NCBI GenBank assembly: GCA_965223485.1
Contig: OZ244993.1
Location: 177,438 to 241,437 of the forward strand
Source: Rhodothermales bacterium
Lineage (GTDB): Bacteria > Bacteroidota > Rhodothermia > Rhodothermales > VXPQ01
Length of the DNA: 64,000 nt
Reading direction: 5' to 3'
Shown one piece after another: positions 1-21,149 of the stretch. Each line of letters opens with the position of its first letter. The stretch's first letter is position 1. Both the position numbers and the translations under genes were made by a program. The notes below the pieces were generated by a model. It had not been told where the DNA came from. It did not search any database and saw only the letters and a program-made list of their open reading frames with translations.

Positions 1-3000
1 CGCCGTATCCGTCGTACTCCCCCGTCCCGTCCAGACGTATGTGTACTCGGAACCTGCCGGAGCACCGGACGCCGCGCAGTCCAGAGCGAAGTCCGCAGAT
101 CCCTCGTACACAGAACCGGGATCCGCGCACGTAACCGTGATAACCGGCCTGTTCAACACGGTTACGGTAATATCTTCGGTAACGTCAGCAACCCCGCTGG
201 CCGACAGCGTCACCGTGTAGTCGTAGTCCGTGTCCGCATCTACGTTGTCCGGGACATCGAACATCGGTGCAAGGATAGCCGTGCCGATCAGGTCGTTCGT
301 ATCCGATGTGCTGCCTCGGGGCGCCCACGAATACGCCGCGTCCGAAGGCGCGTTCGTCACCGAACAATCCAGCGTAATATCGGCCGCACCCTCGTATACC
401 GCGGTATCGTTACACGTAACAAAAGGACGCGGCGCATCCGTGTGCAGCACCGTCACTGTAACCTCGGCCCTGCCGTCTTCCGCATTCTCCGCACTCGCCG
501 TTACCGTGTACGTATACGTCGTGTCTTGCGGTACATCGTAAGGCACGTCGAATGTCGGCGTTGCCGTATCGTGATCCGTAAGACGATCGGTCGGAGACCA
601 TAACCACGTATACGAAGAGCCGCTCGGAGCGCCCGACGCCTCGCACTCCAGTTCAATGTCGGCCGAGCCCTCGTACACGGGATCGGGATCCGCGCACGTA
701 ACAGCGATTGCAGGCCTTGGCAGTACTCTTATCGTAATATCCTGGCTCGCGTACAAGTCTACCGTTAGCGGCGCACATCCCCCCGGACATCGGCCTCTCC
801 AAACCCCCAGAGTGTACTTGTAGGTCGTAGCGCTATTCACTGTTGCAGGCATGCGGAACGTCCCCGACCCGTATCCGGTAACGGTCAATCCCTGCGGCCT
901 CGGCCACCCCGTCGGCCATCCCCCGCTGCTGGAGATGGTATGGGGAAGGCCATCGGGGGTCCAGGCCGCCCACAACCACCGGAAGATGCCACCACCCGAC
1001 CTGCTCGAGAGTCTGCAACTCAATTCAATGTCGTCCGATCCGGCGTGCCTTTCAAAATAGGTTCCGTCACAAACCATCTCGCCGGGAAGACCCCTGTCGA
1101 GCACTGTCACCGTCACATCTTCCCTTGCCGATTTCGCGTTCTCCGCCGAGACGGTCAGCCTGTACTCGTACGTCACGTTTCTCGTAATAAAGGGCGGCGC
1201 TCTGAAGGTAGGCGAAGAAATGTCCGTCGCGCTAAGGCGCTGAATGTGCCAATTGTCCGGCGGACTCCCCCGGGCCGTCCAGACATAGTCGTAGGCGGAA
1301 CCCGAAGGCGCGCCCGACGCCGAGCAGTCCAGCGTGGTGTACCCCGAACCCTCGTACACCTCGTACGGATTGCCGGCGCAATCTACGTCGATCGCAGGCT
1401 TGTTCAGTACGGTTACCGTAACGTCTTCGCTGGCCTGCTCGACGCCGCCGACCGACAGCGTCACCGTGTATTCGTAGTCCGTGTTTGCACTTACACTAAC
1501 CGGCACGGCAAATGTGGGGGTAATGCCGTCCGTACCGCTCAACCGATCGGCGACGTCCGTGCCCGTCCAGCTGTACGCAGCATCCGACGGCGCGTTCGTC
1601 ACCGAACAGTCCAGCGTAATATCGTCCGCACCCTCGTACACCTCGCTATCTGCGCATGTGAGCGAAGGATCCCTATCCCGCACGATCACAGTAACGTCCG
1701 CCGAAGCAGACTCTGCATTCTCGGCGCTTACCGTCAGCGTGTAGTAGTACGTCTCTTCCTTTGCAACTTCATCCGGCACATAGAACGTCGGGGAAGCGAT
1801 GTCCGCAGCGCTCAAGTACGCCGGATCCGGCGTATCGCCACCCTCCGTCCAGACGTACGTATACTGTGGGCTGTCGCCCGGAGCCCCCGACGCCAGACAG
1901 CCCATCTCGAAATCCGGATCGCCCTCGTAGGTATACCACAAGTACTGGAGGAACGCAGCAAACCCATCGGTAGGCTTCGCACATGTGATCCTCAACGCTT
2001 CCTTGTTCAGCACCGTCACCATTACATCGGCGGTTACATCATCGATCCCGGCGGCCGACAGCGTCACCGTGTAATCATAGTCCGTGTCTGCGCTTGCACT
2101 ACCAGGCACGACAAACGTCGGAGTGAGACTACTCGTGTCCGTCAACCGATCGGCGACGTCCGTGCCCGTCCAACTGTACGCAGCATCCGACGGCGCGTTC
2201 GTCACCGTACAGTCCAGCGTAAAACCGGCCGCACCCTCGTAGACCTCGGAATCATTGCAGGTGATGGAGGGAGGAGGCGCCGTATCCGTGTCGAGCACCG
2301 TCACCGTAACGTTGGCGGTCTCATCGTCCGCATTCTCCGCCGTAGCCGTCACCGCGTACGTATACGTCGTGTCTTGCTCTACACTGCCAGGTACAGCGAA
2401 CGTGGGCGTACCCGTATCGTGATCCGTAAGACGGGTATTCGGAGACCATGACCACGTATATGAAGAGCCCCTCGGAGCCCCCGACGCCTCGCACTCCAGT
2501 TCAATGTCGGCCGATCCCTCGTACACCTCGTAGGAGCTTTCGCACATGACCGTTATATCTATGTCCCACACTATCAGATCAACCCACGCTACAGCGTCAT
2601 CCGCGTTCGCGGCGCTCACGGTCAGCGTATACGAGTACCTCTCGTCCTCGTCCACCGCATCCGGTACGTCAAACGTCGGAACTTCTATGTCCGCCGCGCT
2701 GAGCAGCGCCGTATCCGGCGTACCGTTCCGAGCCGTCCATGCGTACGTGTAACCGACAGGCCCTCCTTCCCATCCGCTTGCACAAGCGCGTAGTGGATAA
2801 TCCCGGCTGCCTTCAACAAGACCTAATGTTGTTAGAAAATGGCTTAACATTCCGGGTACTGACGGGCAATAGATATCCGGCTTCTCCAATACCGTTACGG
2901 TAACGTCTTCGCTGGCCTGCTCGACGCCGCCGACCGTCATCGTCACCGTGTAGTAATAGTCCTTATCCGCCTCGTCCGGCTCGTCGATATCGCCCGGCGC

Positions 3001-5433
3001 CGAAAATGTGGGAGTAATGCCGTCCGTACCGCTCAACCGATCGGCGACGTCCGTGCCCGTCCAGCTGTACGCAGCATCCGACGGCGCGTTCGTCACCGAA
3101 CAGTCCAGCGTAATATCGTCCGCACCCTCGTACACCTCGCTATCTGCGCATGTAAGCGAAAGGGGCACCTTTATCTGAGTCTGCACCGAAGCGTCGTCCG
3201 CGTTCTCTGCGCTCACTGTCAGCATATACGAGTAATACGAGTACGTCCCGATGACGAGGTCGCTCTCTACCTCGTCCGGCACGTAAAACGTCGGAACTTC
3301 TATGTTCGCCGCGCTAAGCAGGTCGGTGTTCGCCGTGCCGAGGGAGGACAAAGCCGTCCATGCGTACGCGTAAACGGCGCCAGCGCCCGGGGCGCCTGTC
3401 CATACACCGTACGGACAAAAGCGTAATGGAAACTCCCGGGTACTTTCATGCAAGGTGAATACAACTACTACTCTTCTCGGTGCAGAACAATAGATATCCG
3501 GCTTCTCCAGCACGGTCACCATAACGTCCTCGCTGGCCTGCTCGACGCCTCCGGCGGTCATCGTCACCGTATACTCGTAGTCCTTATTCGCACCGTCCAC
3601 CTCATCGATATCGCCCGGCGGCGCGAACGTCGGTTGCAGAATAGTCGTACTGCTCAGGTCGTTCGTATTCGATGTACTGCCCCGCACCGCCCACGCGTAC
3701 GTAGCGCCTGTCGGCTCGTTCGCCACCGAACAGTCCAGCGTAATATCGTCCGCACCCTCGTAGACCTCGGAATCATTGCAGGTGATGGAGGGAGGAGGCG
3801 CCGTATCCGTGTCGAGCACCGTCACCCTAACCTCGGTAGCGCCGTCGTCTGCATTCTCCGCGCTCGCCGTTACCGTGTACGTCCAGGTCGTATTCCGGTC
3901 TACATCGTCCGGCGCGTCGAACGTGGGCGTAGCCGTATTGCGACCCGTCAGATCGTCGGTCGGTGACCATGACCACGTATAGTCCGGATCGTCCCCCGGC
4001 GCGCCCGACGCAGAGCAGTCAAACTCAATATCGTCTGCGCCCTCGTCAACATCATCAGGATCCTCGCATGTAATCGTGATCGCAGGCTTGTTCTTCACCG
4101 TTACCGCGACATCGGCGCTGGCGCGCAGGGTGTACGCAAGAAGGCCATCGCCCCGCGAAGTATACAATGCTACCGTGTATTCATACATCTCGTTCTGATT
4201 CACCAAATCAGGTACGTCGAAGGTTATTCTGTAATACGATGGATTCTTCAATCTGGGCGTGGGCGCTGCCGAAGCAGGTGGGAGAATCTGCTCGCCACGA
4301 CGCGACCATCTTACGAAATTGTTGCCTGCCGGCTGATCATGAATCGAGCAATTAATTCCAAGATCGCTTGCTCCCTCGTACACCTCGTAGGGACTATCCG
4401 AACAAGTGATGCCGGGATCAAGCATATACCCCGAAACTTCTTCTTCGCCGACGACCCTGACCGTCACTCTTCTGCGCGCCGTGCGGGGCGTCCCCGAAGC
4501 CTGCGACGTCATGCTCGCTATGTAATGGTACTCCTCGCCCGCACTGCCCGCAGGAGCCGTAAACAGCGCAGACGACATATCCGTCGCATCCAGAAGCGAC
4601 GTGCTCGCGCCCCAAAGGCCCTCCCACAACCATTCGATCGACGCCCCGTCCTCGTCGTAGTCCATACGATGCGACAGCGGATCCGCCCCCTCGCAATCGA
4701 GCGAAACAGCCGAACCCTCCTCAACCGCTACCTCCAGGGGACAATACACGCTCGGACGACTGCCCGATACGTACACCTCCACTTCCCGCCACGACGAAAG
4801 ACCCGTAGCACGAGACGTCGCCGTCAAACGGTACCGGTAAAGAAACGTCGTCTCCCCCGAATAAAACGACTCCAGCGTCTCGTACGCCGGAGCCTCCGGA
4901 GCCACTACCGACGGGTTCGGCGCATCCTCGGGCGTCAACCTCGGATTGTTCAGATAGTCCCGCGTCGTACTTCCCACAGGCTCCCACGAATACTCCAGGT
5001 GTTCCTCTCCCGAAGCGTCCCATGCATGACACTCGACCTGTCCCGTCTCGAGCTCCTCCAGAAAAACAGCCACGGGACACTCCAGACGAGGAGGCGTCCG
5101 CCAGGCGGGACCGGAAGGCTCGCCCGGGCGCGCTTCTCCTTCCGGACCGAATCCGAAAGGATCCGGCGTCTTCTCCCGAGGCGCGCAGCTTTCCCCGAAC
5201 TCGCCGGGAACCGTAAAAGGATCGCATTCCTCCTGCACAACGGGCGCCCAGGCCGATTCCTCCGCAACGCCGCCCTTTACCGGAAAACCCTCTTCCCGGA
5301 TAACCTGACCCTGCGCCGAAGAAACGCAGAGCAGCGCCCCAACGGCAAGCACGCACGCCAGACGCCGAAACGCGATGGCGTTGCAGAAACTGCGATCGCC
5401 GTCAAACAGGATAACGGGGCGGGGATCGTTCAT
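1..5433 (-). CDS. Giant secreted Ig/PKD-like repeat protein, paralog D. Partial: the 3' end runs off the left edge, with >1,810 codons in the window.
   Basis: The minus-strand frame from the ATG at 5433 appears open to position 1: the track lists no ORF fragments in that frame. Spot translations fit the family, e.g. 781-900 gives RPQGLTVTGYGSGTFRMPATVNSATTYKYTL. The N-terminus MNDPRPVILFDGDRSFCNAIAFRRLACVLAVGALLCVSSAQG/QVIREEGFPVKGG is collinear with paralog B. The body is successive ~98-aa modules (C-x16-C ... YxYxW ... PTFxVP ... YxYxLTVS ... VTVTVL). Confidence 0.8.
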   Translation of the reverse strand, partial: MNDPRPVILFDGDRSFCNAIAFRRLACVLAVGALLCVSSAQGQVIREEGFPVKGGVAEESAWAPVVQEECDPFTVPGEFGESCAPREKTPDPFGFGPEGEARPGEPSGPAWRTPPRLECPVAVFLEELETGQVECHAWDASGEEHLEYSWEPVGSTTRDYLNNPRLTPEDAPNPSVVAPEAPAYETLESFYSGETTFLYRYRLTATSRATGLSSWREVEVYVSGSRPSVYCPLEVAVEEGSAVSLDCEGADPLSHRMDYDEDGASIEWLWEGLWGASTSLLDATDMSSALFTAPAGSAGEEYHYIASMTSQASGTPRTARRRVTVRVVGEEEVSGYMLDPGITCSDSPYEVYEGASDLGINCSIHDQPAGNNFVRWSRRGEQILPPASAAPTPRLKNPSYYRITFDVPDLVNQNEMYEYTVALYTSRGDGLLAYTLRASADVAVTVKNKPAITITCEDPDDVDEGADDIEFDCSASGAPGDDPDYTWSWSPTDDLTGRNTATPTFDAPDDVDRNTTWTYTVTASAENADDGATEVRVTVLDTDTAPPPSITCNDSEVYEGADDITLDCSVANEPTGATYAWAVRGSTSNTNDLSSTTILQPTFAPPGDIDEVDGANKDYEYTVTMTAGGVEQASEDVMVTVLEKPDIYCSAPRRVVVVFTLHESTREFPLRFCPYGVWTGAPGAGAVYAYAWTALSSLGTANTDLLSAANIEVPTFYVPDEVESDLVIGTYSYYSYMLTVSAENADDASVQTQIKVPLSLTCADSEVYEGADDITLDCSVTNAPSDAAYSWTGTDVADRLSGTDGITPTFSAPGDIDEPDEADKDYYYTVTMTVGGVEQASEDVTVTVLEKPDIYCPSVPGMLSHFLTTLGLVEGSRDYPLRACASGWEGGPVGYTYAWTARNGTPDTALLSAADIEVPTFDVPDAVDEDERYSYTLTVSAANADDAVAWVDLIVWDIDITVMCESSYEVYEGSADIELECEASGAPRGSSYTWSWSPNTRLTDHDTGTPTFAVPGSVEQDTTYTYAVTATAENADDETANVTVTVLDTDTAPPPSITCNDSEVYEGAAGFTLDCTVTNAPSDAAYSWTGTDVADRLTDTSSLTPTFVVPGSASADTDYDYTVTLSAAGIDDVTADVMVTVLNKEALRITCAKPTDGFAAFLQYLWYTYEGDPDFEMGCLASGAPGDSPQYTYVWTEGGDTPDPAYLSAADIASPTFYVPDEVAKEETYYYTLTVSAENAESASADVTVIVRDRDPSLTCADSEVYEGADDITLDCSVTNAPSDAAYSWTGTDVADRLSGTDGITPTFAVPVSVSANTDYEYTVTLSVGGVEQASEDVTVTVLNKPAIDVDCAGNPYEVYEGSGYTTLDCSASGAPSGSAYDYVWTARGSPPDNWHIQRLSATDISSPTFRAPPFITRNVTYEYRLTVSAENAKSAREDVTVTVLDRGLPGEMVCDGTYFERHAGSDDIELSCRLSSRSGGGIFRWLWAAWTPDGLPHTISSSGGWPTGWPRPQGLTVTGYGSGTFRMPATVNSATTYKYTLGVWRGRCPGGCAPLTVDLYASQDITIRVLPRPAIAVTCADPDPVYEGSADIELECEASGAPSGSSYTWLWSPTDRLTDHDTATPTFDVPYDVPQDTTYTYTVTASAENAEDGRAEVTVTVLHTDAPRPFVTCNDTAVYEGAADITLDCSVTNAPSDAAYSWAPRGSTSDTNDLIGTAILAPMFDVPDNVDADTDYDYTVTLSASGVADVTEDITVTVLNRPVITVTCADPGSVYEGSADFALDCAASGAPAGSEYTYVWTGRGSTTDTA

Positions 5434-5477
5434 CGGATTGGCCTTAAATGGCGATCGACTCTGAGATATCCAACGGT
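5380..5477 (-). other. DCC-gene-derived junction between paralogs C and D: the C-D intergenic 44 bp plus the first 18 codons of D.
   Basis: 5434-5477 and 5380-5433 align base-for-base, with few mismatches, to 25468-25511 and 25414-25467. Those are the spacer after giant B and the first 18 codons of the intact DCC gene. The same block recurs at 30954-31051. Confidence 0.85.
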
Positions 5478-8400
5478 TCATTGCAATGCGCTCTTCGGGG
5501 TTGTTCTCCGTTCTTTTTCCCCGGCGGCCCCTATGTCTCTTCCCGGCGCATTCCACTCAACGGATGTGGGCTCGGGTACTCGACTCGATCCCCAGGGCGC
5601 AAATCGTAAAAACACCACCTCTTCCTCAGGCATACGAGCCAGCGGCACGCGCACGCGGCTGCGCGTGTACACCAGCGTCTCCCGGCGGCCCAGCTCGCGG
5701 CCATCCCCGTCGTACGCCACCACCTCGCCCGCAAAAGGACGATCCTCGGTCTCCAGCAAAAACGTCGCGGACATGGAAACCCCATACGACAACGACAACA
5801 GCGTGGCCCGTAGCTGAGACGCCCCTTCGCCGGGTACGTACACCCCCGGAACGCGCATCGTCACGCGAGCCGTCCTCTCTCCCGTAACCTCCTCCGGCAT
5901 ACGGTCCGAACGCACGTACTGACGAGGAGATGACACCACATCGAAAAACGCCGCGTAGCCCTGCTCCGCCATAGCCGCAAGCGCTCCCTCCTTCACCCCG
6001 TAACGCACCAGACCCTTCTCTCCAGGCTGCAATACCACAACCGCCGGATGTATGTCCACCACCTGGGACAAATCGCCCAGGCGTGAGTCCGAAGCATCCT
6101 CTACTACCACCTCCCGGCCGTCCCTTGTCGCCTCCGTATACCCGAATCGAGCAGACACCGACACCTCCAGCGGAATGAGCGACGGATTCGACAACTCGAA
6201 CACGCCGTGAGGCTTCCCTTCCGTCAAAAACGCAACATCGGGATAGATGCTCAGGTTCTGCTCCTCCGTCAAGCCCGCAGCAAGCTCACGTGATGTGCTG
6301 AAGCGAACCCCTCCGGGGCCTATCGTGATCACACGCTGCGAAGGTACGACCGTCACTTCCACCTCCACCGAGTGCGTCTCTTCGCTCTCGCCCGAACGAA
6401 GAACGATGTCCATACTCCCCGCATACCGCCCCGAAGGCGCGTCCGTAAGGTCCAGTTCGCCTCCGAAGCGAAGAAGGCGGCAGGCGCCCTCCGTAAGCGT
6501 CGCCTCCGTATACAGCCCGCCTATCGCCTGAGAAGAAAGCTGCTCGCACGACTCCGCAAAGGACCAGGAAGGAGAAAGAACGAGCGAAGACGGCTCGGCA
6601 GCGCCCTCACGCTTCAGAAGAACCGGAGAGACAACCTCTATGGACAGGTCCATCTCCCCGTTCTCGTCGAACGATGCGCCGCCGCCCGGCGAAAGCGTCA
6701 TACGGCCTGCATGGTACGGACCCGATACGCGCGTCGATATCTGATCCGTCATCGGATCGAGCGACGCCCGCGTCTGCGCCGACTGCACCCCGAAACGCAA
6801 GGACGATGCGCTTACCGTTACGCCAAGGGCCGTCGGATCCGAAGGCGCCCGTGAGGAAGACCCCGCTACGGGAGGCTCTTCTGCGGGAGGCGAAACAGGA
6901 TCCGGGGCAGGCGTCCGTATCCGGTCGAGCACCGTTACGGTCACCTCCGCCTTCGCATCTTCCGCATTCTCCGCACTGACCGTAAGCAGGTATTCGTACG
7001 TCTCGTCCTCGTCTACCTCATCCGGTACGTAAAACATCGGGGAGGAAACGTCCGCAGCGCTGAGCAGCGACGTATCCGGCGTATCGCCCCGAGCCGTCCA
7101 GGCGTACGTATACTGCGGGTCGTCGCCCGGAGCCCCGGACGCCGAGCAGTCGAACGTGGTATCTTCCGATCCCTCGTATACCGAACCGGGGTCCGCGCAC
7201 GCAATGCTAAGCGCCCCCTTGTTCAGCACCGTCACCGAAACCTCTGCCGCAGCGTCTTCCGCGTTGTCGGCGCTCGCCGTAAGCAGGTATTCGTAGGTCT
7301 CGTCCTCGTCCACTTCGTCCGGTACCGCGAACGTCGGGGACGCAATGTCCGCAGCGCTGAGCAGAGCCGTATCCGGCGTATCGCCCCGAGCCGTCCACGC
7401 GTACGTATACTGCGGATCATCGCCCGGAGCCCCGGACGCCGAGCAGTCGAACGCGATGTCTGCCGATCCCTCGTACACCGGAGAAGGCATCGCGCATACC
7501 ACGCGCAGCGCTCCCACATTCAACACCGTCACCGTCACATCCGCCGAGGCGTCTTCCGCATTCTCTGCCGAGACGGTCAGCGTGTATTCGTACGTCTCGT
7601 CCTCGTCTACCTCATCCGGTACGTAGAACATCGGGGAGGAAACGTCCACAGCGCTGAGCAGCGACGTATCCGGCGTATCGCCCTGCGCCTCCCATGTATA
7701 ATTGTAGGTGGAACCAGCCGGAGCCCCGGACGCCGAACAGTCGAATGCAACGTCCTCCGAGCCCTCGTACACCGAACCGGGATCCGCGCACACGAGCGCA
7801 AGCGTACCCTTGTTCAGCACCGTCACGGTAACGTCCTCTGTCACAGACTCCGCATTGTCGGCGCTTACCGTCAGCGTGTATTCGTACGTCTCGTCCTCGT
7901 CCACCTCCTCCGGCACGTCGAATGTCGGGGCGGGACCGTCCGCACCGGCAATAAGCAGGTTCGTGTTCGCCGTACCGTTCCTGGCCGTCCACTCATATTC
8001 GTAGGTGGAACCCCCGGGAGCGCCCGAAGCCGTGCAGTCGAATGCAATGTCCTCAGATCCCTCGTAGACCGAACCGGGGTCCGCGCACACGAGCGCAAGC
8101 GCACCCTTGTTCAGCACCGTTACGGTTACCGCCGCCGCAGCGTCTTCCGCGTTGTCCGCCGATACCGTCAGCGTGTATTCGTAGGTCTCGTCCTCGTCTA
8201 CCTCATCCGGTACGTAAAACATCGGGGAGGAAACGTCCGCAGCGCTGAGCAGGGCCGTATCCGGCGTATCGCCCCGAGCCGCCCAGGCGTACGTATACTG
8301 CGGGTCGTCGCCCGGAGCCCCGGACGCCGAGCAGTCGAACGCGAAGTCTTCCGAGCCTTCGTATACCGAACCGGGGTCCGCACACGCAAGCGCAAGAGCG

Positions 8401-11400
8401 CCCTTGTTCAGCACCTTCACCCTAACGAGCGCCACCGCAGACTCCGCATTCTCAGCGCTCACCCTCAACCTGTACTCGTAGGTTGTCGTTTGCGGCACGT
8501 CGTCCGGCACATGGAACGTCGGCGACGCTATGTCCGTCGCGCTCAAGAGACCCGTGTCCGGCTTGCCGCCCTGAGCTATCCACGAGTACACGTAGGCGGA
8601 ACCCCCGGGAGCGCCCGAAGCCTCGCAGTCGAACGCAACGTCCTCCGATCCCTCGTACACCGAACCGGGATCCGCGCACACGAGCGCAAGAGCGCCCTTG
8701 TTCAGCACCTTCACCCTAACGAGCGCCACCGCAGACTCCGCATTCTCAGCGCTCACCCTCAACCTGTACTCGTAGGTTGTCGTTTGCGGCACGTCGTCCG
8801 GCACATGGAACGTCGGCGACGCTATGTCCGTCGCGCTCAAGAGACCCGTGTCCGGCTTGCCGCCCTGAGCTATCCACGAGTACACGTAGGCGGAACCCCC
8901 GGGAGCGCCCGAAGCCGCGCAATCCAGAGCGAAGTCCTCCGAGCCCTCGTAGACCGAACCGGGGTCCGCACACGCAAGCGCAAGAGCGCCCTTGTTCAGC
9001 ACCTTCACGGTAACGTCGGCGCTGGCGGGATCCGCATTCTCCGCCGAGACGGTCAGCGTGTATTCGTACGTTGTCGTCGCATCTACCTCCTCCGGCACGT
9101 CGAATGTCGGGGCGGGACCGTCCGCACCGGCAATAAGCAGGTCCGTGTTCGCCGTACCGTTCCTGGCCGTCCACTCATATTCGTAGGCGGAACCTGCCGG
9201 AGCGCCCGAAACCGCGCAATCCAGAGCGAAATCCTCCGATCCCTCGTACACCGAACCCGGATCCGTGCATATAACGGCAAGCGCACCCCGGTTCAAAACC
9301 GTCACGGTCACCTCTGCCGTAGCGTCCTCCGCATTCTCCGCCGAGACGGTCAGCGTGTATTCGTACGTTGTCGTCGCATCTACCTCCTCCGGCACGGCAA
9401 ACACCGGGGAAGCAATGTCCGCCCTGCCAAGCATATCCGTATTTGTCGTAGAGCCTCTGGCCGTCCAGGCGTATCCGTAGGTAGAACCCCCAGGCGCGCC
9501 CGAAGCCGTGCAGTCCAACGCGAAGTCCTCCGAACCTTCGTACACCAAGGGGGGCGATGCGCAAACGAGCGCAATGGAGCCAAGGTTAAGCACCGTCACG
9601 GTCACCTCCGCCGAAGCGGACTCCGCATTCTCCGCGCTCGCCGTAAGCAGGTACTCGTACGTCGTCGTCTCGTCCAACGCATCCGGCACGTAGAACGTCG
9701 GAGAAGGTATGTCCGCGGTACTCAATCGGGACGTGTTCGGCGTCGCGCCTATGGCTGTCCACTCGTACGCATAATCGACGTTGTCTCCCGTATCCCCTGA
9801 GATCGAGCAGTCCAACGCGAAGTCCGCCGAACCTTCGTACACCAGGGGAGGCGATGCGCAAACGAGCGCAATGGATCCGAGGTTAAGCACCTTCACCGTC
9901 ACCTCCGCCCTTGCGGACTCCGCATTCTCCGCCGAAACCGTCAAAAGGTACTCGTACGTTTCGTCCTCGTCCACTTCCCCCGGCACGTCGAATGTCGGGG
10001 CGGGACCGTCCGCACCGGCAATAAGCAGGTCCGTGTTCGCCGTACCGTTCCTGGCCGTCCACTCATATTCGTAGGCGGAACCCCCGGGAGCGCCCGAAGC
10101 CGCGCAGTCGAATGCAATGTCCTCAGATCCCTCGTAGACCGAACCGGGGTCCGCACACGCAAGCGCAAGAGCGCCCTTGTTCAGCACCGTCACGGTAACG
10201 TCGGCGCTGGCGGGATCCGCATTCTCCGCCGAGACGGTCAGCGTGTATTCATACGTCTCGTCTTCGTCCACTTCTTCCGGTACGGCAAACGTCGGAGAAG
10301 GATCGTCCGTATTGCTTAAAAGCGACAGGTCAGGAGTCGCGCCCCGAGGCTCCCAAACGTATGTATAGATAGAACCCGCAGGAGCGCCCGACGCCGCGCC
10401 GCAATTCAACGGGAAATTCGCCGACCCCTCGTACACCGGAGCCGGGTCCATACATACCACCGAGAGAGATTCCTTGTTAAGTACTGTCACCGTAATCCCT
10501 GCCGTCTCAGAATCCGCATTGTCGGCGCTCACCGTCAGCGTGTAGTCGTATGTTTTGTCACTATCTATCTCTTCCGGTACATCGAACGTCGGCTTCGCAA
10601 TAGTCGTACTGCTCAGCCTGCCCGGGACCACGGTACTGCCGCGTCCCGTCCATACGTAGTTGTAGTTGTCAGTACCCGAAGGATCGCCCGACGCCGAACA
10701 GTCCAACGCAAAGTCCTCCGATCCCTCGTACACCAGAGGATAAAATTGGCAGGCTATGATCACATTCGGCTTCTCCAGCACGGTTACGGTAACGTCTTCG
10801 CTGGCCTGCTCGACGCCGCCGACCGTCATTGTAACCGTGTACTCGTAGTCCTTATTCGCTTCGCCCGGCTGATCGATATCGTACGGCGCCGCAAATGTGG
10901 GAGTAATGCCGTCCGTACCGCTCAACCGATTGCCAATATCCGTACCGGTCCACGCGTACGTAGCGCCCGGCGGCTCGTTCGCCACCGAACAGTCCAGCGT
11001 AATATCGGCCGTCCCCTCGTATACCTCCGAATCCGAACAAGTGACAACAGGTGCAGGCGTGTCCGTGTCAAGCACAAGTACCGCAACCGGCTCCGAAGCG
11101 TCATCCGCGTTCTCTGCGCTTACCGTCAGCGTATATTCGTATGTTTCGTCGCTGTCCACCTCCTCCGGTACCTCGAACGTCGGCTTCTCAACGGTCGTAC
11201 TACTCAACCTGCTCGTGTCGCCGCCGCCCCGCGCCGTCCATTCGTACGCGTAGTCGGAACCCGCAGGAGCACCCGACGCCGAACAGTCCAACGCGAAGTC
11301 CTCCGAGCCCTCGTACACCGGAGAAGGCGTCGCACACGCAAGCGCAAGAGCGCCCTTGTTCAGCACGGTTACGGTAACGTCATCGCGGGCCTGCTCGAAG

Positions 11401-14180
11401 TTGCCGATCCACATCGTCACCGTGTAGTCGTATGTTTTGTCACTATCTATCTCTTCCGGTACATCGAACGTCGGCTTCAGGATATTTATGCTGATCAACC
11501 GAAACGTACCAAACGTACTGCCGCGAGTCGCCCACCTGTACGTAGCGCCCGAAGGCTCGTTCGTCGGCGTACAGTCGTCCAGCGTAAAATCGGCCGCACC
11601 CTCGTAGACCGGGTCGGGATCTATACAGGTTATGCCAGGTCTCGGGGGATACGTATCCGTGTCCCGCACCGTCACCTTAACCTCGGCGGTCCCAGCATCT
11701 GCTTTATTCGCCGTAGCCGTTACCGTGTAGGTATACGTCGTGTCCCTGTCTACATCCCCGGGGACATTGAACGTGGGCGCGCCCGTGTCGTAACCCGTCA
11801 GGTTGGCGGTCGGAGACCATGACCACGTATACTGCGGATCGCCCCCCGGGGCGTCCGACGCCTCGCAGGCCAGCGTGACGTTATTGTCCCCCTCGCTCAC
11901 AGGGTAGAGATCGCTTTCGCAGGTGACCGTGATATCAGGCTTCTCCAGCACCGTTACGGTCACATCGTCCTGGGCCACGACGGATCCCCCGGACATCATC
12001 GTCACCGTGTATTCGTAGTCCTTATTCGCATCGCCCGGCTCATCGATATCGCCCGGCACGATAAATGTGGGGGTAATGCCGTTCGTACCGCTCAACCGAT
12101 TCGCGACGTCCGTACCCGTCCAGGCGTAGGTTGCGCCCGCCGGCTCGTTCTCTACCGAACAATCCAGCGTAAACTCGCCCGAGCCTTCGTACGCCGGATC
12201 GGGATGCGTACAGGCGAGCGAAGGCGGGGGGGGATCCGTGTCCCGCACCGTCACGGAGATATTAGCATCGTCCGGACCACCATGGAGAGGGTTAGTACGT
12301 CTGAAAACGTACCGGTATTCCGTGTCCGCATCCACATCCTCGGGCACTTCGAACTCGGGAGTAAGGACATCCGTAGCGCTTAAACGCGCCAAAGCCTCCG
12401 AATCGCCTTCCCAGGAGTAGACATAATCTGCAACAACGTGGGCGCTTAAGGAGTGGTCGTACACCAACTCAAGGTCAAAAGTAAAATCTTCGTCCCCCTC
12501 GTCCCGGTCGTATTGCCCGGTGTAAAGAAGCAGGATGTGATTCCTGCCCGTCACCGATACCGACAGATTCGCGTCGGCGGTAGATCCGTCGCTTGCCGAT
12601 ACCTCGAGATTGTAAAGGTATTGGCGGAAGTCAAGGTTCGGTACATTCGGCACGCGGAAAACGGGATTCCGGATCGTATGATCGCTCAGGAGCGCCAAGT
12701 ACCCCGAATTGCCTGTCCATAAATACGTATACGCAGCGCCGGCCGGGCCGAACACCGGCTCGCAGTCCAGAACAAAATCGGGCGCTGTCTCTGCAACAGC
12801 ATAATAGTAGTAGATCCCCAAACGGTCGCCATCACAGGTCACTTCAAGAGAAAGGTTGCCGCGCGCCGCCCCTGAAACATTCGCCTCGTCCGCCTTGTCC
12901 GGACCGACATCCCCTATCACCCTGACCGTCACCCTGCGCCTTGCCGTGCGGGGCGTCCCCGAGGCCTGCGACGTCATGCTCGCTATGTAATGGTACTCCT
13001 CGCCCGCGCTGCCGGCAGGAGCCATAAACAGCGCAGACGACCTGTCCGTCGCATCCAGAGGAGCCACGCTCGTTCCCCAAAGACCCTCCCACTCCCACAA
13101 TATCGACGCTCCTTCCTCGTCGTAGTCCATACGATGCGACAGCGGATCCGCCCCCTCGCAATCGAGCGCGATCGCCTCGCCCTCCTCAACCGATACCTCC
13201 AGCGGACAATACACGCTCGGACGGCTGCTCGATACGTACACCTCCACTTCCGAGGACGACGAAAGACCCGTCGCGCGGGAGGTCGCCGTCAAACGGTACC
13301 GGTAAAGAAACGTCGTCTCACCCGAACGGAACGACTCCAGCGTCTCGTACGCCGGAGCCTCCGGAGCCACTACCGAAGGATTCGGACTGTCCTCGGGAAT
13401 CAAACGAGGATTCTCCAGATAGTCCCGCGTCGTATTGCCCACGGGCTCCCACGAATACTCCAGGTGTTCCTCTCCCGAAGCGTCCCACGCATGGCACTCG
13501 ACCTGTCCCGTCTCCAACTCCTCCAGAAACACCGCCACAGGACACTCCAGACGAGGAGGCGCCTGCGCAAAAGGCCCGCCATCCGAAGAACCGGGAAATT
13601 CCTTGTCCTCTGCGCCCGGCGACCCCGGAAAAGACGGCCAGGGAACGATCCCTTCTTCTCCCGGAACCCCGAAAGGACCCTGCGGCGGAGCCTTCTCCCA
13701 GGGAAGACAACCTTCCCGATCTCTCACAAAACCGGAAAACGTATCGCACTCCTCTTCGCGAGCCCCGGATGCTCTCTCAGCCCCCTGAACAAGACCCTCC
13801 ACCGTGACCGCTACCGACGCCGTCGCATAAACGCCCGCCCCCGTCGCCGTCAAAAGGTATGCGTACTCCTCTCCCGCCCCCGATAAGGAAGCCGTGAATA
13901 AAGGCGCCAGGGCCTGCGCATCGCTCAGAAGACGAAGCCCGTCGCCCGAGACCGCCTCCCACGCGTAGCGGATGCCCTCCTCGGGTACCGATGTCGCAGT
14001 ACACGATAACGAAACGGCCTCGCCTGCTGCAACATAAAGGCGAGGAGAGCAAGACAAGGAAAACGACTCTCCAAAAACGTCCCCACCCTTGACGGGAAAA
14101 CCGCCTTCCTCGATCACCTGACCGTATGCGACGGATGCGCATGCCAACAGCGCAACGGCAACGGATAGCATGCGCGCCAT
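5478..14180 (-). CDS. Giant secreted Ig/PKD-like repeat protein, paralog C (~2,900 aa).
   Basis: Track ORF 5478..14225 (its first codon is TTG). I place the start at the ATG at 14180 (MARMLSVAVALLACASVAYG/QVIEEGGFPVKGG), which gives a canonical signal peptide. The protein has three N-terminal Ig-like domains, irregular modules, 18 regular 98-99-aa modules, then a 482-aa conserved C-terminal module (5478-6926). Confidence 0.9.
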   Translation of the reverse strand: MARMLSVAVALLACASVAYGQVIEEGGFPVKGGDVFGESFSLSCSPRLYVAAGEAVSLSCTATSVPEEGIRYAWEAVSGDGLRLLSDAQALAPLFTASLSGAGEEYAYLLTATGAGVYATASVAVTVEGLVQGAERASGAREEECDTFSGFVRDREGCLPWEKAPPQGPFGVPGEEGIVPWPSFPGSPGAEDKEFPGSSDGGPFAQAPPRLECPVAVFLEELETGQVECHAWDASGEEHLEYSWEPVGNTTRDYLENPRLIPEDSPNPSVVAPEAPAYETLESFRSGETTFLYRYRLTATSRATGLSSSSEVEVYVSSSRPSVYCPLEVSVEEGEAIALDCEGADPLSHRMDYDEEGASILWEWEGLWGTSVAPLDATDRSSALFMAPAGSAGEEYHYIASMTSQASGTPRTARRRVTVRVIGDVGPDKADEANVSGAARGNLSLEVTCDGDRLGIYYYYAVAETAPDFVLDCEPVFGPAGAAYTYLWTGNSGYLALLSDHTIRNPVFRVPNVPNLDFRQYLYNLEVSASDGSTADANLSVSVTGRNHILLLYTGQYDRDEGDEDFTFDLELVYDHSLSAHVVADYVYSWEGDSEALARLSATDVLTPEFEVPEDVDADTEYRYVFRRTNPLHGGPDDANISVTVRDTDPPPPSLACTHPDPAYEGSGEFTLDCSVENEPAGATYAWTGTDVANRLSGTNGITPTFIVPGDIDEPGDANKDYEYTVTMMSGGSVVAQDDVTVTVLEKPDITVTCESDLYPVSEGDNNVTLACEASDAPGGDPQYTWSWSPTANLTGYDTGAPTFNVPGDVDRDTTYTYTVTATANKADAGTAEVKVTVRDTDTYPPRPGITCIDPDPVYEGAADFTLDDCTPTNEPSGATYRWATRGSTFGTFRLISINILKPTFDVPEEIDSDKTYDYTVTMWIGNFEQARDDVTVTVLNKGALALACATPSPVYEGSEDFALDCSASGAPAGSDYAYEWTARGGGDTSRLSSTTVEKPTFEVPEEVDSDETYEYTLTVSAENADDASEPVAVLVLDTDTPAPVVTCSDSEVYEGTADITLDCSVANEPPGATYAWTGTDIGNRLSGTDGITPTFAAPYDIDQPGEANKDYEYTVTMTVGGVEQASEDVTVTVLEKPNVIIACQFYPLVYEGSEDFALDCSASGDPSGTDNYNYVWTGRGSTVVPGRLSSTTIAKPTFDVPEEIDSDKTYDYTLTVSADNADSETAGITVTVLNKESLSVVCMDPAPVYEGSANFPLNCGAASGAPAGSIYTYVWEPRGATPDLSLLSNTDDPSPTFAVPEEVDEDETYEYTLTVSAENADPASADVTVTVLNKGALALACADPGSVYEGSEDIAFDCAASGAPGGSAYEYEWTARNGTANTDLLIAGADGPAPTFDVPGEVDEDETYEYLLTVSAENAESARAEVTVKVLNLGSIALVCASPPLVYEGSADFALDCSISGDTGDNVDYAYEWTAIGATPNTSRLSTADIPSPTFYVPDALDETTTYEYLLTASAENAESASAEVTVTVLNLGSIALVCASPPLVYEGSEDFALDCTASGAPGGSTYGYAWTARGSTTNTDMLGRADIASPVFAVPEEVDATTTYEYTLTVSAENAEDATAEVTVTVLNRGALAVICTDPGSVYEGSEDFALDCAVSGAPAGSAYEYEWTARNGTANTDLLIAGADGPAPTFDVPEEVDATTTYEYTLTVSAENADPASADVTVKVLNKGALALACADPGSVYEGSEDFALDCAASGAPGGSAYVYSWIAQGGKPDTGLLSATDIASPTFHVPDDVPQTTTYEYRLRVSAENAESAVALVRVKVLNKGALALVCADPGSVYEGSEDVAFDCEASGAPGGSAYVYSWIAQGGKPDTGLLSATDIASPTFHVPDDVPQTTTYEYRLRVSAENAESAVALVRVKVLNKGALALACADPGSVYEGSEDFAFDCSASGAPGDDPQYTYAWAARGDTPDTALLSAADVSSPMFYVPDEVDEDETYEYTLTVSADNAEDAAAAVTVTVLNKGALALVCADPGSVYEGSEDIAFDCTASGAPGGSTYEYEWTARNGTANTNLLIAGADGPAPTFDVPEEVDEDETYEYTLTVSADNAESVTEDVTVTVLNKGTLALVCADPGSVYEGSEDVAFDCSASGAPAGSTYNYTWEAQGDTPDTSLLSAVDVSSPMFYVPDEVDEDETYEYTLTVSAENAEDASADVTVTVLNVGALRVVCAMPSPVYEGSADIAFDCSASGAPGDDPQYTYAWTARGDTPDTALLSAADIASPTFAVPDEVDEDETYEYLLTASADNAEDAAAEVSVTVLNKGALSIACADPGSVYEGSEDTTFDCSASGAPGDDPQYTYAWTARGDTPDTSLLSAADVSSPMFYVPDEVDEDETYEYLLTVSAENAEDAKAEVTVTVLDRIRTPAPDPVSPPAEEPPVAGSSSRAPSDPTALGVTVSASSLRFGVQSAQTRASLDPMTDQISTRVSGPYHAGRMTLSPGGGASFDENGEMDLSIEVVSPVLLKREGAAEPSSLVLSPSWSFAESCEQLSSQAIGGLYTEATLTEGACRLLRFGGELDLTDAPSGRYAGSMDIVLRSGESEETHSVEVEVTVVPSQRVITIGPGGVRFSTSRELAAGLTEEQNLSIYPDVAFLTEGKPHGVFELSNPSLIPLEVSVSARFGYTEATRDGREVVVEDASDSRLGDLSQVVDIHPAVVVLQPGEKGLVRYGVKEGALAAMAEQGYAAFFDVVSSPRQYVRSDRMPEEVTGERTARVTMRVPGVYVPGEGASQLRATLLSLSYGVSMSATFLLETEDRPFAGEVVAYDGDGRELGRRETLVYTRSRVRVPLARMPEEEVVFLRFAPWGSSRVPEPTSVEWNAPGRDIGAAGEKERRTTPKSALQ
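6927..12230 (-). repeat. In-frame tandem array of ~18 units of 294-297 bp inside paralog C.
   Basis: Shadow ORFs recur at exact 294-bp spacing, e.g. identical translations starting at 8452 and 8746. The protein repeats LALACADPGSVYEGSEDFAxDCxASGAPxGSxYxYxW...PTFxVPxxV...TYEYxLTVSAENA...VTVTVLNKGA. Confidence 0.9.
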
Positions 14181-14550
14181 GCAATCAGGCAGGGCGCCGC
14201 AGCGACCGACAAAACCCGGGCTCAAATCGCCCTTTATTATATATATATATATACAAATGAGGTTCTTGCAGCCTATACTCTCTCTCGCCGGTTCGATGAC
14301 CGGGGGCCCGGCTTAGGCCAAGGGTTGATGCCGGTAGCTACCCTTTGAGGTCTCCGGTGCATCTTCCATCCGTTCGGTTTTTCTTGCTTCGGGCGTGTCG
14401 GATATGCAGGCTGCACCCATCTTGTGAATTACGTCTTCATAACAAATTATCAACGTATCAATATATTTTCAAGGCACTTATGTGCCCTAATTGTGATATT
14501 ATAGGCTATATGCGTGATTCTATTGTGAACTTCCGGGCAGACCGCTCATT
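14181..14550 (-). promoter_or_regulatory. Upstream/leader region of paralog C, duplicated upstream of paralog A.
   Basis: 14181-14550 matches 40415-40787 except for a few substitutions, a 1-bp and a 6-bp indel, and the TA-tract length. It contains an AT-rich stretch (~14424-14530), short palindromes (GGTAGCTACC; GGCAC-N4-GTGCC) and the TA tract. The promoter position itself is not determined. Confidence 0.5.
14238..14253. repeat. (TA)8 dinucleotide microsatellite, 58-73 nt upstream of the paralog C start codon.
   Basis: Read directly: ...tttat TATATATATATATATA caaatga. The paralogous position upstream of A has (TA)6. Confidence 0.95.
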
Positions 14551-14654
14551 CGGTATCATTCGGGCCAAGTCGTTGCAGAATCGGGATTGCTTTATCCGAC
14601 GACGCACGGCGCGAACCCCGGGTGCTGCCTTCAAAACAAATCGAGGTGCGGAAA

Positions 14655-17045
14655 ATGAATAAATCCAACGAGATGGAAGCGGAAATACGGGCGCTTCGCG
14701 AGCGCCTCTCCAAGTTGAGCGCGGCCGTTCTGCGAATCAGCACGAGCCTCGACCTCGATACCGTGTTGCGCGAGATCGTGGCAAGCGCCCGCGCCCTGAC
14801 CGGCGCCCGCCATGGCGGGGTCACGACCATTGACAAGGCGGGGCAGGTCCAGGACTTCGTCACCTCCGGCATCACGCCCGACGAGCACCGGCAGCTCGTG
14901 GCTTGGCCCGACGGGATGCGGCTCTTCGAGCGCCTCCGGGACCTGCCGGGCGCGATCCGGCTGCGGGACCTGCCCGCCTACGTCCGCTCGCTCGGTTTCT
15001 CCTCGGACCTGATGCGTTGGAAGACCCTGCAGGGAACGCCGATGCGCCATCGCGGCATGCACGTCGGCACCTTCTTTCTCGCCGAGAAGGAGGGCAGACC
15101 GGAGTTCACCGATGAGGACGAAGAGGTTCTGGTGCTGTTCGCGTCGCAGGCGGCGACAGCCATCGCCAACGCCCGCACGTACCAGGACGAGCAGCGAGCC
15201 CGGTCCAACCTGGAGGCTCTGGTCGATACCTCGCCGGTGGGCGTCGTGATCTTCGATGCGAGGACCGGTCACCCGGTGTCGCTCAACCGGGAGCTGAAGC
15301 GGATCGTCGGTGGCCTGCGCATGCCGGACCGCACGCCGGAGCAGTTGCTGGAGGTGTTGACGTACCGGCGCGCCGACGGGCGGGAGGTTACCCTGGACGA
15401 TTTCCCGCTGGCTCTGGCGCAGGAGCTGGGCAGCCTCGAGCTGGTTCGCGCCGAGGAGGTCGTGCTCTCGGTCCCCGACGGCCGGAGCGTCAAGACGCTG
15501 GTCAACGCCACGCCGATCCTCTCGGCGGACGGTGCGGTCGAATCCGTGGTCGTCACCCTGCAGGACATGACGCCGCTGGAGGAGCTCGAGCGGATGCGTG
15601 CCGAGTTCCTGGGCATGGTGAGCCACGAGTTGCGAGCTCCCCTCGCCTCCATCAAGGGCTGCGCTGCCACCGTGCTGGGAGCCTCATCGGCATTGGACCC
15701 TGCCGAGACGCTACAGTTTTTTCGCATTATCAACGAGCAGGCCGATCACATGCGCGACCTGATCGGCGACCTACTTGACGCGGTCCACATCGAGACGGGT
15801 ACGTTGTCGGTGACTCTCGAACCGGCGGAGGTGACTGTCATGGTGGATCAGGCCCGGACCACGTTCCTGAGCGGAGGGGGCAGCAATACCGTCCAGATAG
15901 ACCTGCCGCCGGACCTGCCGCTCGTACGGGCAGACAGGCAGCGCATCGTTCAGGTCCTGGTGAACCTGTTGACCAACGCGGCCCTGAACTCACCCGAGTC
16001 GTCCGTGATCCAGGTATCGGCAGTACGGGAGAACGTCCATGTGGCGGTCTCGGTCACCGACCAGGGACGAGGCATTCCCGCCGAACGTCAGCCCCACCTG
16101 TTCAAGAAGTTCGCCCGCAGCGGCCTGGAAGAACGAGGGCGCGGGGTCGGCGCGGGTCTGGGCCTGGCCATCTGCAAAGGCCTGGTGGAGGCCCATGGGG
16201 GCCGCATCTGGGCCGAGAGCGAGGGAACGGGCCTGGGCACGCGGTTCACCTTCACGATTCCCCTGGTCGAGGAGGTCGGGACCGGTGTCATGGAGGTCCC
16301 GACGCATAGGCCGCTCCGCCCGCGGCGCGCAGATCGGCAGAAGCCGCTCGTACTCGTGGTGGACGATGACCCCCTGGTACTGGGGTATATACGGGGGGTC
16401 CTTGAGGACGCCGGTTTTAGCCTGCTCGTGACCGGCGACCCGAAAGAGGTGTCCGACCTGATCAAGACGCGCCAGCCCGACCTGGTGCTGCTGGACCTGC
16501 TGCTGCCTGGTACGGACGGCATACAGCTGATGCAAGACGTTCCGGCGCTGGCCGATCGACCGGTTATCTTCCTGTCCGCATATGGCCGGGATGAAACGAT
16601 TGCAAGGGCCCTGGAGATCGGAGCGGTCGATTACATCGTCAAGCCGTTTTCGCCTACGGAGCTGGTGGCCAGGATCCAGGCGGCGCTGCGTAAGAGCGAC
16701 TTGCCCTCCGAAACGTACCGGTCAGGGGGTCTCGTGATCAACTACGAGGAACGCCGGGTGACTGTGGACGGATGCGCGGTGCGACTTACCGCCACCGAGT
16801 ACGATCTGCTCCGCGTCCTTTCGACCAACGCCGGCCGGGTAGTGACCTACGAAAACCTGCTGCGTAGCGTGTGGCGCTCGCGCAGCTCCGGCGACGCGCG
16901 CCTGGTGCGGGCTTTCGTGAAGAAACTGCGCCGCAAGCTGGGCGACGATGCGAGCAACCCAACGTACATCTTCACCGAGCCGCGGGTAGGCTACCGCATG
17001 CATAGACCCGACGACGCGTCAGAGGCCGCGAGTGTGTATAAGTGA
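14655..17045 (+). CDS. Single-polypeptide two-component system: GAF-PAS-histidine kinase fused to a receiver and an OmpR/PhoB-type winged-helix DNA-binding domain. No transmembrane segment.
   Basis: Motifs seen: H-box MVSHELRAPLASIKG; ATPase boxes DQGRGIP and GVGAGLGLAICKGLVEAHGGRIWAES; receiver LVLVVDDDP...DLVLLDLLLPGTDG...DYIVKPF; wHTH LTATEYDLLRVL...VKKLRRKLGD...TEPRVGYRM. The track ORF starts at a GTG at 14622. The ATG at 14655 is preceded by GAGG 8 nt upstream, so I prefer it. Confidence 0.85.
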   Translation: MNKSNEMEAEIRALRERLSKLSAAVLRISTSLDLDTVLREIVASARALTGARHGGVTTIDKAGQVQDFVTSGITPDEHRQLVAWPDGMRLFERLRDLPGAIRLRDLPAYVRSLGFSSDLMRWKTLQGTPMRHRGMHVGTFFLAEKEGRPEFTDEDEEVLVLFASQAATAIANARTYQDEQRARSNLEALVDTSPVGVVIFDARTGHPVSLNRELKRIVGGLRMPDRTPEQLLEVLTYRRADGREVTLDDFPLALAQELGSLELVRAEEVVLSVPDGRSVKTLVNATPILSADGAVESVVVTLQDMTPLEELERMRAEFLGMVSHELRAPLASIKGCAATVLGASSALDPAETLQFFRIINEQADHMRDLIGDLLDAVHIETGTLSVTLEPAEVTVMVDQARTTFLSGGGSNTVQIDLPPDLPLVRADRQRIVQVLVNLLTNAALNSPESSVIQVSAVRENVHVAVSVTDQGRGIPAERQPHLFKKFARSGLEERGRGVGAGLGLAICKGLVEAHGGRIWAESEGTGLGTRFTFTIPLVEEVGTGVMEVPTHRPLRPRRADRQKPLVLVVDDDPLVLGYIRGVLEDAGFSLLVTGDPKEVSDLIKTRQPDLVLLDLLLPGTDGIQLMQDVPALADRPVIFLSAYGRDETIARALEIGAVDYIVKPFSPTELVARIQAALRKSDLPSETYRSGGLVINYEERRVTVDGCAVRLTATEYDLLRVLSTNAGRVVTYENLLRSVWRSRSSGDARLVRAFVKKLRRKLGDDASNPTYIFTEPRVGYRMHRPDDASEAASVYK

Positions 17046-17148
17046 GGGCTACCTTCGCCTTGAACGAAGGACTATGGGTTCTGCGTGTGCGTCTTGACAT
17101 GGGTCTCGTCGGGTTGATCGGATCGGAACAAGGTCGCAACGGTACACC

Positions 17149-17672: not shown

Positions 17673-17678
17673 ATACCT

Positions 17679-19217: not shown

Positions 19218-19229
19218 AACGAACCTGCC

Positions 19230-19604: not shown

Positions 19605-19611
19605 CTTTAAA

Positions 19612-20739: not shown

Positions 20740-20754
20740 GGAACAATGGGAAAA

Positions 20755-21138: not shown

Positions 21139-21149
21139 AGACAAAAATG

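Follow-up and report, generated by a model that had tools for sequence, protein, structure and literature searches.

Two giant gene pairs of a Rhodothermales bacterium as members of a recombining, species-expanded family of putative secreted proteins

The stretch of DNA considered here, called the window throughout, comprises 64,000 nucleotides of an uncultured Rhodothermales bacterium (C1:177438-241437 of a one-contig genome of 3,245,449 bp, or 3.245 Mb, a single contig of the metagenome-assembled genome (MAG) type) and is dominated by five very long frames on the minus strand, named D, C, B, A and E. All five open with a hydrophobic signal sequence and common N-terminal immunoglobulin (Ig)-like modules. 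An earlier note on this DNA had described the two-gene unit C-D (4400-14550) as a collinear segmental duplicate of A-B (29970-40787). As judged from sequence comparison, C-D and A-B are very probably two of at least five head-to-tail pairs in a recombining, species-expanded family of giant secreted proteins. The duplicated two-gene unit is real, but the relationship is not exclusive, as the unit is present in at least five copies.

Giant C (5478..14180, minus strand) has a probable ATG (MARMLSV) at 14180, the open reading frame caller's TTG being at 14225, and is made up of a signal peptide, N-terminal Ig-like modules, 21 domains found with a repeat hidden Markov model, of which the array holds 20, and a C-terminal module of about 480 aa. 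The 5' part of giant D lies at 1..5481 (minus strand) in an open frame, 1-5556, that runs off the window; in full, D is a 3,568-codon open frame at genome 172287-182993. Giants B (25512..31055, frame 25512-31130) and A (31052..40414, frame 31052-40486) are on the same strand. The three collinear blocks claimed for the two units were all recovered by self-BLASTN, by megablast and by an exhaustive scan of every diagonal from +24,000 to +28,000. Block 1, which takes in the N-terminus of D/B, the junction and the C-terminal module of C/A, was found at 4337-5306 with an offset of +25,577 (87% identity) and at 5158-7066 with +25,574 (93.5%). Block 2 extends over 8275-9812 at +25,865/+25,862 with 95-100% identity, including exact runs of 610 and 290 bp, and continues more weakly to about 10,144. 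Block 3 covers 12,796-14,550 at +26,234 to +26,237, with a BLAST identity of 96.3% over 1,632 bp and exact runs of 558-571 bp. Chance can be excluded because the BLAST E-values of the blocks are 0. The offset steps of 291 and 369 bp were correct, each a multiple of three, and the units are indeed direct repeats with collinear non-repeat parts, namely the upstream element, the N-terminal module, the C-terminal module and the gene-gene junction.

Other parts of the original description require revision. Length differences had been thought to be confined to the arrays, which is contradicted by a one-codon indel in the D/B N-terminus within block 1 (QEEC vs REC) and by indels in the non-coding upstream element, where C and A differ by (TA)8 vs (TA)6, a 6-bp indel and a 1-bp indel, not all of them multiples of three. 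The proposed gain, loss or replacement of whole codons can be kept for the 369-bp step as a net replacement of non-orthologous modules, but not as a loss or gain of modules. At the module level, only C11-C16 and A12-A17 are collinear (six modules with 84-100% module identity; 8275..10157 on the minus strand, matching 34271-36016), whereas C2-C10 and A2-A11 are different modules. The N-proximal array of C (C2-C10, 10160..12795, minus strand) had no collinear counterpart in A in the diagonal scan, with 60-70% identity that reflects generic module similarity; its nearest relatives are F, g3, g1 and g5, which, like H, I and the other g-numbered genes below, are family members elsewhere in the genome. 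C2-C4 are nearest F; in A, modules A2-A3 share 97-98% identity with g15, and A5-A8 share 81-98% with I. Between D and B, the diagonal scan gave no collinear alignment below 4337, so the stretch common to both is the first ~1.1 kb of the N-terminus only.

A mosaic of relationships emerges when the best non-self match is taken for each 300-bp or 200-bp tile. With 200-bp tiles, A-B is the best match for 26% of C-D, while C-D is the best match for 21% of A-B and I-H for 36%. The best partners of the C-D unit are A (20%), F (17%), g4 (12%), g3 (11%), g1 (10%), E (8%) and B (5%), and those of the A-B unit are I (30%), C (18%), g3 (8%), E and g15 (7% each), F and H (6% each) and D (3%). For the whole of D, these values are 36% for g3, 24% for g4 and 0.3% for B; for the whole of B, 29% for F, 20% for g5 and 6% for D. 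For giant A alone, I is best in 36% of tiles and C in 18%. Thus A is nearest I, D is nearest g3 and B is nearest F, with C about equally close to F and A. B and D also have closer relatives in g3, H, g1 and, over the whole gene, F, and the two have no common exact tract of at least 200 bp in a k-mer scan. The 3' half and 3' flank of B are nearest F (95-99.7%) and its N-terminus is nearest g3 (97.3%); A is a mosaic nearest I, C, E, g15 (98% over modules A2-A3) and others. The upstream element and N-terminus of C are 96.2% identical to F and 96.3% to A. The N-terminal module and signal peptide of C (12796..14180, minus strand) are common to A, F and I, and the upstream element (14181..14594, minus strand) is common to A (to 14550), to F (to 14594) and to a solo copy at genome 1321232-1321548. 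The corresponding element of A (40415..40787, minus strand) contains (TA)6 and abuts the stop of an FAA-hydrolase gene at 40797.

Collinearity of this kind can be found between other loci. The order g5-D-C is collinear with g2-g3-g4, with a 733-bp exact tract between the D/g5 and g3/g2 spacers and a 5-kb block across the junction. The fraction of positions with at least 90% identity is 0.33 for g5-D-C against g2-g3-g4, 0.22 for D-C against B-A and 0.39 for B-A against H-I; the g2-g3-g4/g5-D-C and B-A/H-I comparisons are therefore at least as collinear as D-C/B-A. Phylogenies give a similar picture. In the C-terminal-module tree, 13 copies of this genome group as a single species-specific clade (99/99) that takes in A, B, C, D and E; the pairs inside it are C+g4, B+F and H+g1, not C+A and not B+D; the module of C (5478..6926, minus strand) is accordingly sister to that of g4 and not of A. 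Maximum-likelihood trees of separate segments disagree, with A+C for the N-terminal module, C+A for one half of the C-terminal module, and C+g4 and A+H for the other, so that the partners switch within 1.45 kb.

These data bear directly on the simplest alternative, a single segmental duplication linking A-B and C-D followed by point substitutions and by whole-codon gain or loss of modules in the arrays only. Such an event would explain collinear blocks at near-constant offsets that include non-repeat flanks, the sisterhood of A and C for the N-terminal module, and the fact that A-C has the second-largest exact-tract sum of any pair (2,172 bp). It is nonetheless very unlikely and already contradicted: every block has equal or closer relatives elsewhere, B and D are unrelated as a pair past ~1.1 kb, about half of the C and A arrays is non-orthologous, the tree partners switch as described, and the A/B junction equals another junction, that of I/H, exactly over 917 bp.

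Exchange among the members of the family accounts better for these patterns. A k-mer scan for maximal exact matches was used, as megablast at 100% identity misses embedded exact tracts, and it found 56 exact matches of at least 200 bp between different members, up to 1,399 bp long, in a background of 80-95% identity. Examples include g15-g17 with 1,399 bp in the C-terminal module, D-g3 with 1,050 bp, and A-C with 610 and 571 bp. Mismatches within the A/C blocks are strongly clustered; under a uniform spread of mismatches, runs of 610, 558 and 290 bp have P values of ~1e-19, 3e-7 and 1e-7. Exact tracts in a diverged background, together with discordant segment trees, argue for gene conversion, and the suggestion that the units are substrates for it is borne out. 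Mechanistically, these tracts probably arise by RecA-type gene conversion and unequal crossing-over among paralogues, aided by the in-phase module period of 294-297 bp. Judged from the architecture alone, the likely outcome would be a varied set of surface fibres.

The history of the tandem arrangement can be traced through a scar at the gene junctions. Five head-to-tail pairs, C/D, A/B, I/H, g4/g3 and g2/g1, have the same junction. In the intact arrangement, the stop of B is followed by a spacer and by a DCC1-like oxidoreductase gene (DCC; 25012-25467, minus strand; aligned at 25380-25620). Past the stops of A and C, by comparison, B's spacer and about 20 DCC codons (MNDPRPVILFDGD...) have become fused with the signal peptides of B and D, where an ATG overlaps the upstream stop as ATGA. 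At the C/D junction (5380..5480, minus strand; C stop, spacer and the ~20 DCC-derived codons), the candidate ATG of D is at 5481-5479. Downstream of D and g3 lies a slightly longer DCC fragment. The A/B junction is identical to that of I/H over the 917 bp mentioned above (402+515 bp across the junction, with a 401-bp junction segment at 100%), but only 96.5% identical to that of C/D. Since DCC does not adjoin giants in three congeners or at 36 related loci, the scar is lineage-specific and cannot be polarised by outgroups. The presence of one scar at all five junctions shows that the tandem arrangement arose once in this lineage, through a duplication with its breakpoint in the 5' end of DCC, and was then copied from place to place.

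Comparison between strains gives a view of these processes at short range. Exact-protein look-ups led to independent assemblies in the European Nucleotide Archive (ENA) whose contig names carry coverage tags. The first, ctg834038_29x_l (the 29x contig), from another sample, is 99.7-100% identical per 300-bp tile to window 14,555-24,454, which is 10 kb of unique interval. Its C allele has an additional 624 bp at ~10,949 (208 codons, two complete modules in frame) and 3 bp at 7359, so that the module-number polymorphism that had been proposed does exist between strains. Of the 297 substitutions in the same allele, nearly all fall into about seven patches separated by 1-2-kb stretches almost free of mismatches, and one patch is 100% identical to g4 where C of this genome is 90%. 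Upstream of C, (TA)8 (14238-14253) is found here and (TA)6 in the 29x strain (L049 9589-9600); the tract thus varies at one locus between strains, besides between paralogues. A second contig, ctg760088_17x_l (the 17x contig), was compared with window 15013-34943, and its interval is 98.8% identical (1.2% differing) while giants A and B are 91.8% identical (~8% differing); the family evolves far faster than its surroundings. A third, 3x contig, 93% identical, has a giant of at least 2,600 codons (L048 8334-16264, with broken gene calls) at the site of a collapsed mini-giant of the family (22111-22998, minus strand), which supports a recent internal deletion as the origin of the mini-gene. Exchange between members therefore continues today, as the near-identical strains show. 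The flanking genes of A, encoding an FAA hydrolase and a short-chain dehydrogenase/reductase (SDR), gave no record by exact-protein look-up, and other-strain A alleles come from the 17x contig alone. An exact-pattern scan of metagenome contigs with a 38-mer of the upstream element gave no match.

A more programmed form of variation must also be considered, in which the family is a repertoire of many cassettes, (TA)n promoter tracts act as switches that set the choice of giants produced, and conversion is directed into favoured expression loci, comparable to pilE/pilS or vlsE. The (TA)n tract lies in a putative promoter spacer and differs, (TA)8 vs (TA)6, between paralogues and strains; conversion patches distinguish near-identical strains; and the giants of the 17x strain have diverged by ~8% against 1.2% for the unique interval, all of which would fit. 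However, every copy has its full length, a signal peptide and a start codon, several also an upstream element of their own, no promoterless partial cassettes exist except the mini-gene, and no recombinase or dedicated machinery was found adjoining the loci. We consider this alternative unlikely.

Family repeats have also moved larger pieces of DNA. The F locus (genome 1310383-1321548, plus strand) holds both ends of the window's B-to-C interval (14400-14854 and 24718-25087). In window orientation, its order is an upstream element, F, a deleted DCC, 25087-24718, a joint to 14854, the start of a regulator gene and a solo upstream element. F has a C-like 5' part and a 3' end that is 95-99.7% identical to B. 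The DCC of this locus has an in-frame 312-bp deletion between 9-bp repeats (TCCGGCGAA), the joint to window 14854 is a 9.87-kb deletion with microhomology, and the deletion joints have 6-9 bp of it. The first 230 bp of the regulator are kept, as is a second tRNA-Ala(GGC), which belongs to a 370-bp segment (24718..25087; tRNA-Ala and the DCC 3' end) that is present at the F locus as a 99.7% duplicate in inverted orientation. The solo upstream element downstream of F ends at the (TA)n tract. In a more distant strain, the two genes that flank the locus, for an AAA ATPase and a GNAT acetyltransferase, lie only 307 bp apart, which is the empty F site. The F locus is probably a decayed, dispersed copy of the stretch from the A upstream element to the C upstream element, in which case the interval would have been duplicated together with family members. 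Circular excision followed by re-integration was considered and rejected, as the upstream element of F is complete and the solo copy duplicates the distal 350 bp of it.

The 29x contig places these two loci in a different arrangement. In it, the interval is joined via tRNA-Ala and the deleted DCC to F and the left flank of F, not to DCC-B-A, and the two arrangements part at 24731. The window copy (0.202 Mb, minus) and the F copy (1.321 Mb, plus) are inverted and flank the GC-skew minimum near 1.0 Mb. An origin-spanning inversion of ~1.1 Mb between them is probably the explanation, although we hold this with modest confidence. In the 17x contig, the order A'-B'-DCC-fucD-mini-operon-regulator is kept. 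Both arrangements of this genome therefore have independent support, and a collapse of the two loci into one is unlikely. The claim that the repeats could rearrange the interval stands to the extent that family repeats have rearranged it, but no direct deletion or amplification between the A-B and C-D units was observed in the assemblies compared. As side observations, most members on both sides of the skew minimum (~1.0 Mb) are transcribed away from it, the exceptions being g12, g16 and g17; members lying across the minimum from each other are thus inverted repeats, which give inversions spanning it when they recombine.

Several points weigh against this interpretation of exchange and rearrangement. 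Several of the patches that distinguish the two C alleles have no 100% donor in this genome. Only one of the two recombinant junctions expected from the inversion was seen, and the other contig ends inside the repeat. The 29x contig lacks 178 bp (24553-24730, between the fucD-like gene and tRNA-Ala), a difference at the joint that is unexplained. Finally, the junctions and module counts of this genome rest on its assembly and on independent contigs from other samples and strains. With regard to the 178-bp gap, it adjoins 24718, the point at which the F-locus copy breaks off, and 71 bp of the segment resembles the 3' flank of a giant.

Given this reliance on assemblies, the giants or their order might be mis-joins or uncollapsed haplotypes produced during metagenome assembly. 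In favour of this, the genome is one contig of the MAG type, variants of the strain occur together in at least one sample (29x, 17x and 3x contigs), and contigs break at repeats. Yet hundreds to thousands of substitutions separate the copies, whose unique flanks are different as well; every copy is a long intact frame, exact tracts are no longer than 1.4 kb, and independent assemblies show the C'-D' tandem, A'-B'-DCC-fucD, and a giant beside the GNAT gene at the F locus. An artefact is extremely improbable.

The family to which these pairs belong is large. A six-frame scan found 23 family frames at 20 loci, amounting to ~60,500 codons or ~181 kb (5.6% of the genome); a search with the C-terminal module gave 22 matches, and the collapsed mini-gene is counted in addition to the 20 loci. 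Giants have 1,800-3,600 codons, and each protein consists of a Sec signal peptide, N-terminal Ig-like modules, 6-29 PKD modules of ~98 aa and the ~480-aa C-terminal module. The ~98-aa modules carry paired cysteines of the disulfide type and match the Pfam family K319L-like_PKD (PF22352; gathering cut-off 27 bits), with E = 1e-102 and 336.7 bits over 16 stretches for A, and 4e-34 and 116.9 bits for B. A fifth member in the window, E (56609..64000 and continuing past 64000, minus strand), is ~80% identical to C and A with tracts of 96-100%. Three loci, g14 (genome 1441974-1453417), g16 (1783380-1794826) and g17 (1798525-1809887), are split. The split in g14 is due to a ~1.29-kb repeat with three genomic copies, apparently an insertion sequence (IS), whereas g16 and g17 are each two overlapping frames in a patch of locally reversed GC skew.

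The relatives are MAGs that carry the label Rhodothermales. The C-terminal module was found in 11 of the 11 other congeneric species searched, with 1-17 matches each compared with 22 here, one species having a short remnant only, and matches outside the genus were weak. The family thus appears to be restricted to the genus and to have expanded within this species. A marine-invertebrate habitat may be inferred for the lineage because the sample prefix of one congener is that of an Isopora palifera coral-skeleton metagenome (PMC11070183; PMC9868349).

What the C-terminal module does can be approached through structure prediction. Its AlphaFold2 (AF2) model is all-beta with a predicted local distance difference test (pLDDT) score of 70, and a Foldseek search returned chaperone-usher pilins and PapD-like chaperones (CfaB, Saf, FimC, CsuC, CfaA) with probability 1.0 and template-modelling (TM) scores of 0.2-0.5 (~0.45-0.5 on the target). 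The C-terminal 500 aa match no Pfam or NCBIfam family, and a profile of the module searched against PDB sequences gave chance nanobody matches only. Halves of the module exist elsewhere as separate proteins of ~170 aa and ~270 aa. This would suggest a pilin-like subunit fused to a PapD-like chaperone. In the window, C-terminal modules are located at 5478-6926, 25512-26960 and 31052-32500.

Genomic context can offer further clues. Stand-alone homologues of the module match no Pfam family, except for one sub-threshold DUF4402 match, and in one operon such a homologue is accompanied by genes for a DUF4402/SCPU protein and a 781-aa protein. Conserved homologues of the latter (780-870 aa) follow giants or the ExbD-like operon in three species, and a second protein type from the SCPU-like operon also flanks giants or the ExbD-like operon in those species. 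The 781-aa usher-like candidate has no Pfam family, and its AF2 model has a pLDDT of 37. Fibre assembly by a chaperone-usher-like route would be a reasonable working idea from these models. In addition, the ExbD-like operon is linked to giants in three species, with a conserved unassigned protein of 830-870 aa behind the giant or the operon in each case, an 85% paralogue of it adjoins g16, and the window frame at 21150-22127 is homologous to a small protein of the stand-alone SCPU-like operon. The loci concerned are window 17679-22127 and genome 160259-162784 and 1776747-1783169. With respect to other secretion routes, no type IX secretion system (T9SS) C-terminal sorting domain of type A or B was found in the C-terminal 500 aa with Pfam and NCBIfam, although typical T9SS tails are seen at the ends of other proteins of this genome. 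No Pfam match to RTX/HemolysinCabind occurs in the giants, and their N-terminal hydrophobic signal sequence sets them apart from RTX adhesins of the type I secretion system (T1SS). As a speculation, with a low chance of being right in full, the family might be the diversity generator of a new cell-surface fibre in which the fused pilin-like and chaperone-like C-terminal module docks a PKD-module fibre to a conserved ~840-aa usher-like protein beside the ExbD/TonB-like operon, the 20 inter-converting paralogues and (TA)n promoter switches allow a marine-invertebrate-associated lineage to vary its surface all the time, and the repeats flip ~1.1 Mb around the origin.

Between the two units lies an interval (14622..25467) that runs from the regulator to the DCC1-like gene, and the cargo ascribed to it is all present: a hybrid GAF-PAS-histidine kinase (HK)-receiver-OmpR regulator (plus strand), a five-gene ExbD-like operon (window 17679-22127, minus strand), an enolase-superfamily, fucD-like gene (23238-24548, plus strand) and tRNA-Ala(GGC) (24869-24944, plus strand).

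Concerted evolution by gene conversion is familiar from the opa and pilE/pilS genes of Neisseria, tpr of Treponema, the MgPa repeats of Mycoplasma and msp2 of Anaplasma. Like these conversion-driven surface families, the giants have many paralogues, mosaic identity, exact tracts, discordant segment trees and clustering by species, and, in close strains, allelic differences take the form of patches matching other paralogues. Unlike them, they are made of PKD-type modules over 1,800-3,600 codons and take up 5.6% of a 3.2-Mb genome, and their host belongs to an uncultured Rhodothermales lineage, not to the pathogens. In contrast to systems of the pilE/pilS, vlsE or msp2 type, all copies here look complete and expressible, with no single expression site served by silent cassettes. 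Giant repetitive Ig-like adhesins of the Bap/LapA/SiiE type, which use type I secretion, are another point of comparison. The very long arrays of ~100-aa Ig-like beta-sandwich modules and the in-frame variation in module number are alike, but the giants have a Sec signal peptide and a distinct ~480-aa C-terminal module, no RTX repeats or C-terminal T1SS signal by Pfam, and no adjacent ABC/MFP/TolC genes. Their modules match the same PF22352 model as the eukaryotic K319L-like PKD proteins (KIAA0319-like/AAVR type); here they are bacterial, arrayed 6-29 times and furnished with paired cysteines, and no functional relation is implied. The predicted C-terminal module would resemble archaic SCPU/DUF4402 chaperone-usher systems in having a pilin-like part followed by a PapD-like two-domain chaperone fold, but the subunit-like and chaperone-like parts would be fused to the end of a giant, and no Pfam usher or PapD match was found. 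Lastly, origin-spanning inversions are known between inverted rrn operons or IS copies on opposite replichores. The window and F copies are likewise inverted and flank the skew minimum, with one recombinant junction in a near-identical strain, the difference being that the repeat here is a decayed duplicate of a surface-protein locus.

A duplicated gene pair alone would be ordinary, and multigene families in which conversion and unequal crossing-over homogenise and shuffle the members are of a known kind, of which this is a large new instance with direct between-strain evidence. The wider setting is more notable. Twenty giant exchanging paralogues occupy 5.6% of a 3.2-Mb genome, one junction scar marks the origin of the tandem arrangement, and the protein family, whose C-terminal module is unassigned, is uncharacterised and restricted to one genus. 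Care must be taken by annotators and binners, as giant loci of this type are hot spots of strain-level structural variation. Near-identical strains already differ in conversion patches, module number, a promoter microsatellite and large-scale arrangement, and the locus can serve as a natural system in which tract lengths and rates of gene conversion are followed in an uncultured bacterium through long-read metagenomes.

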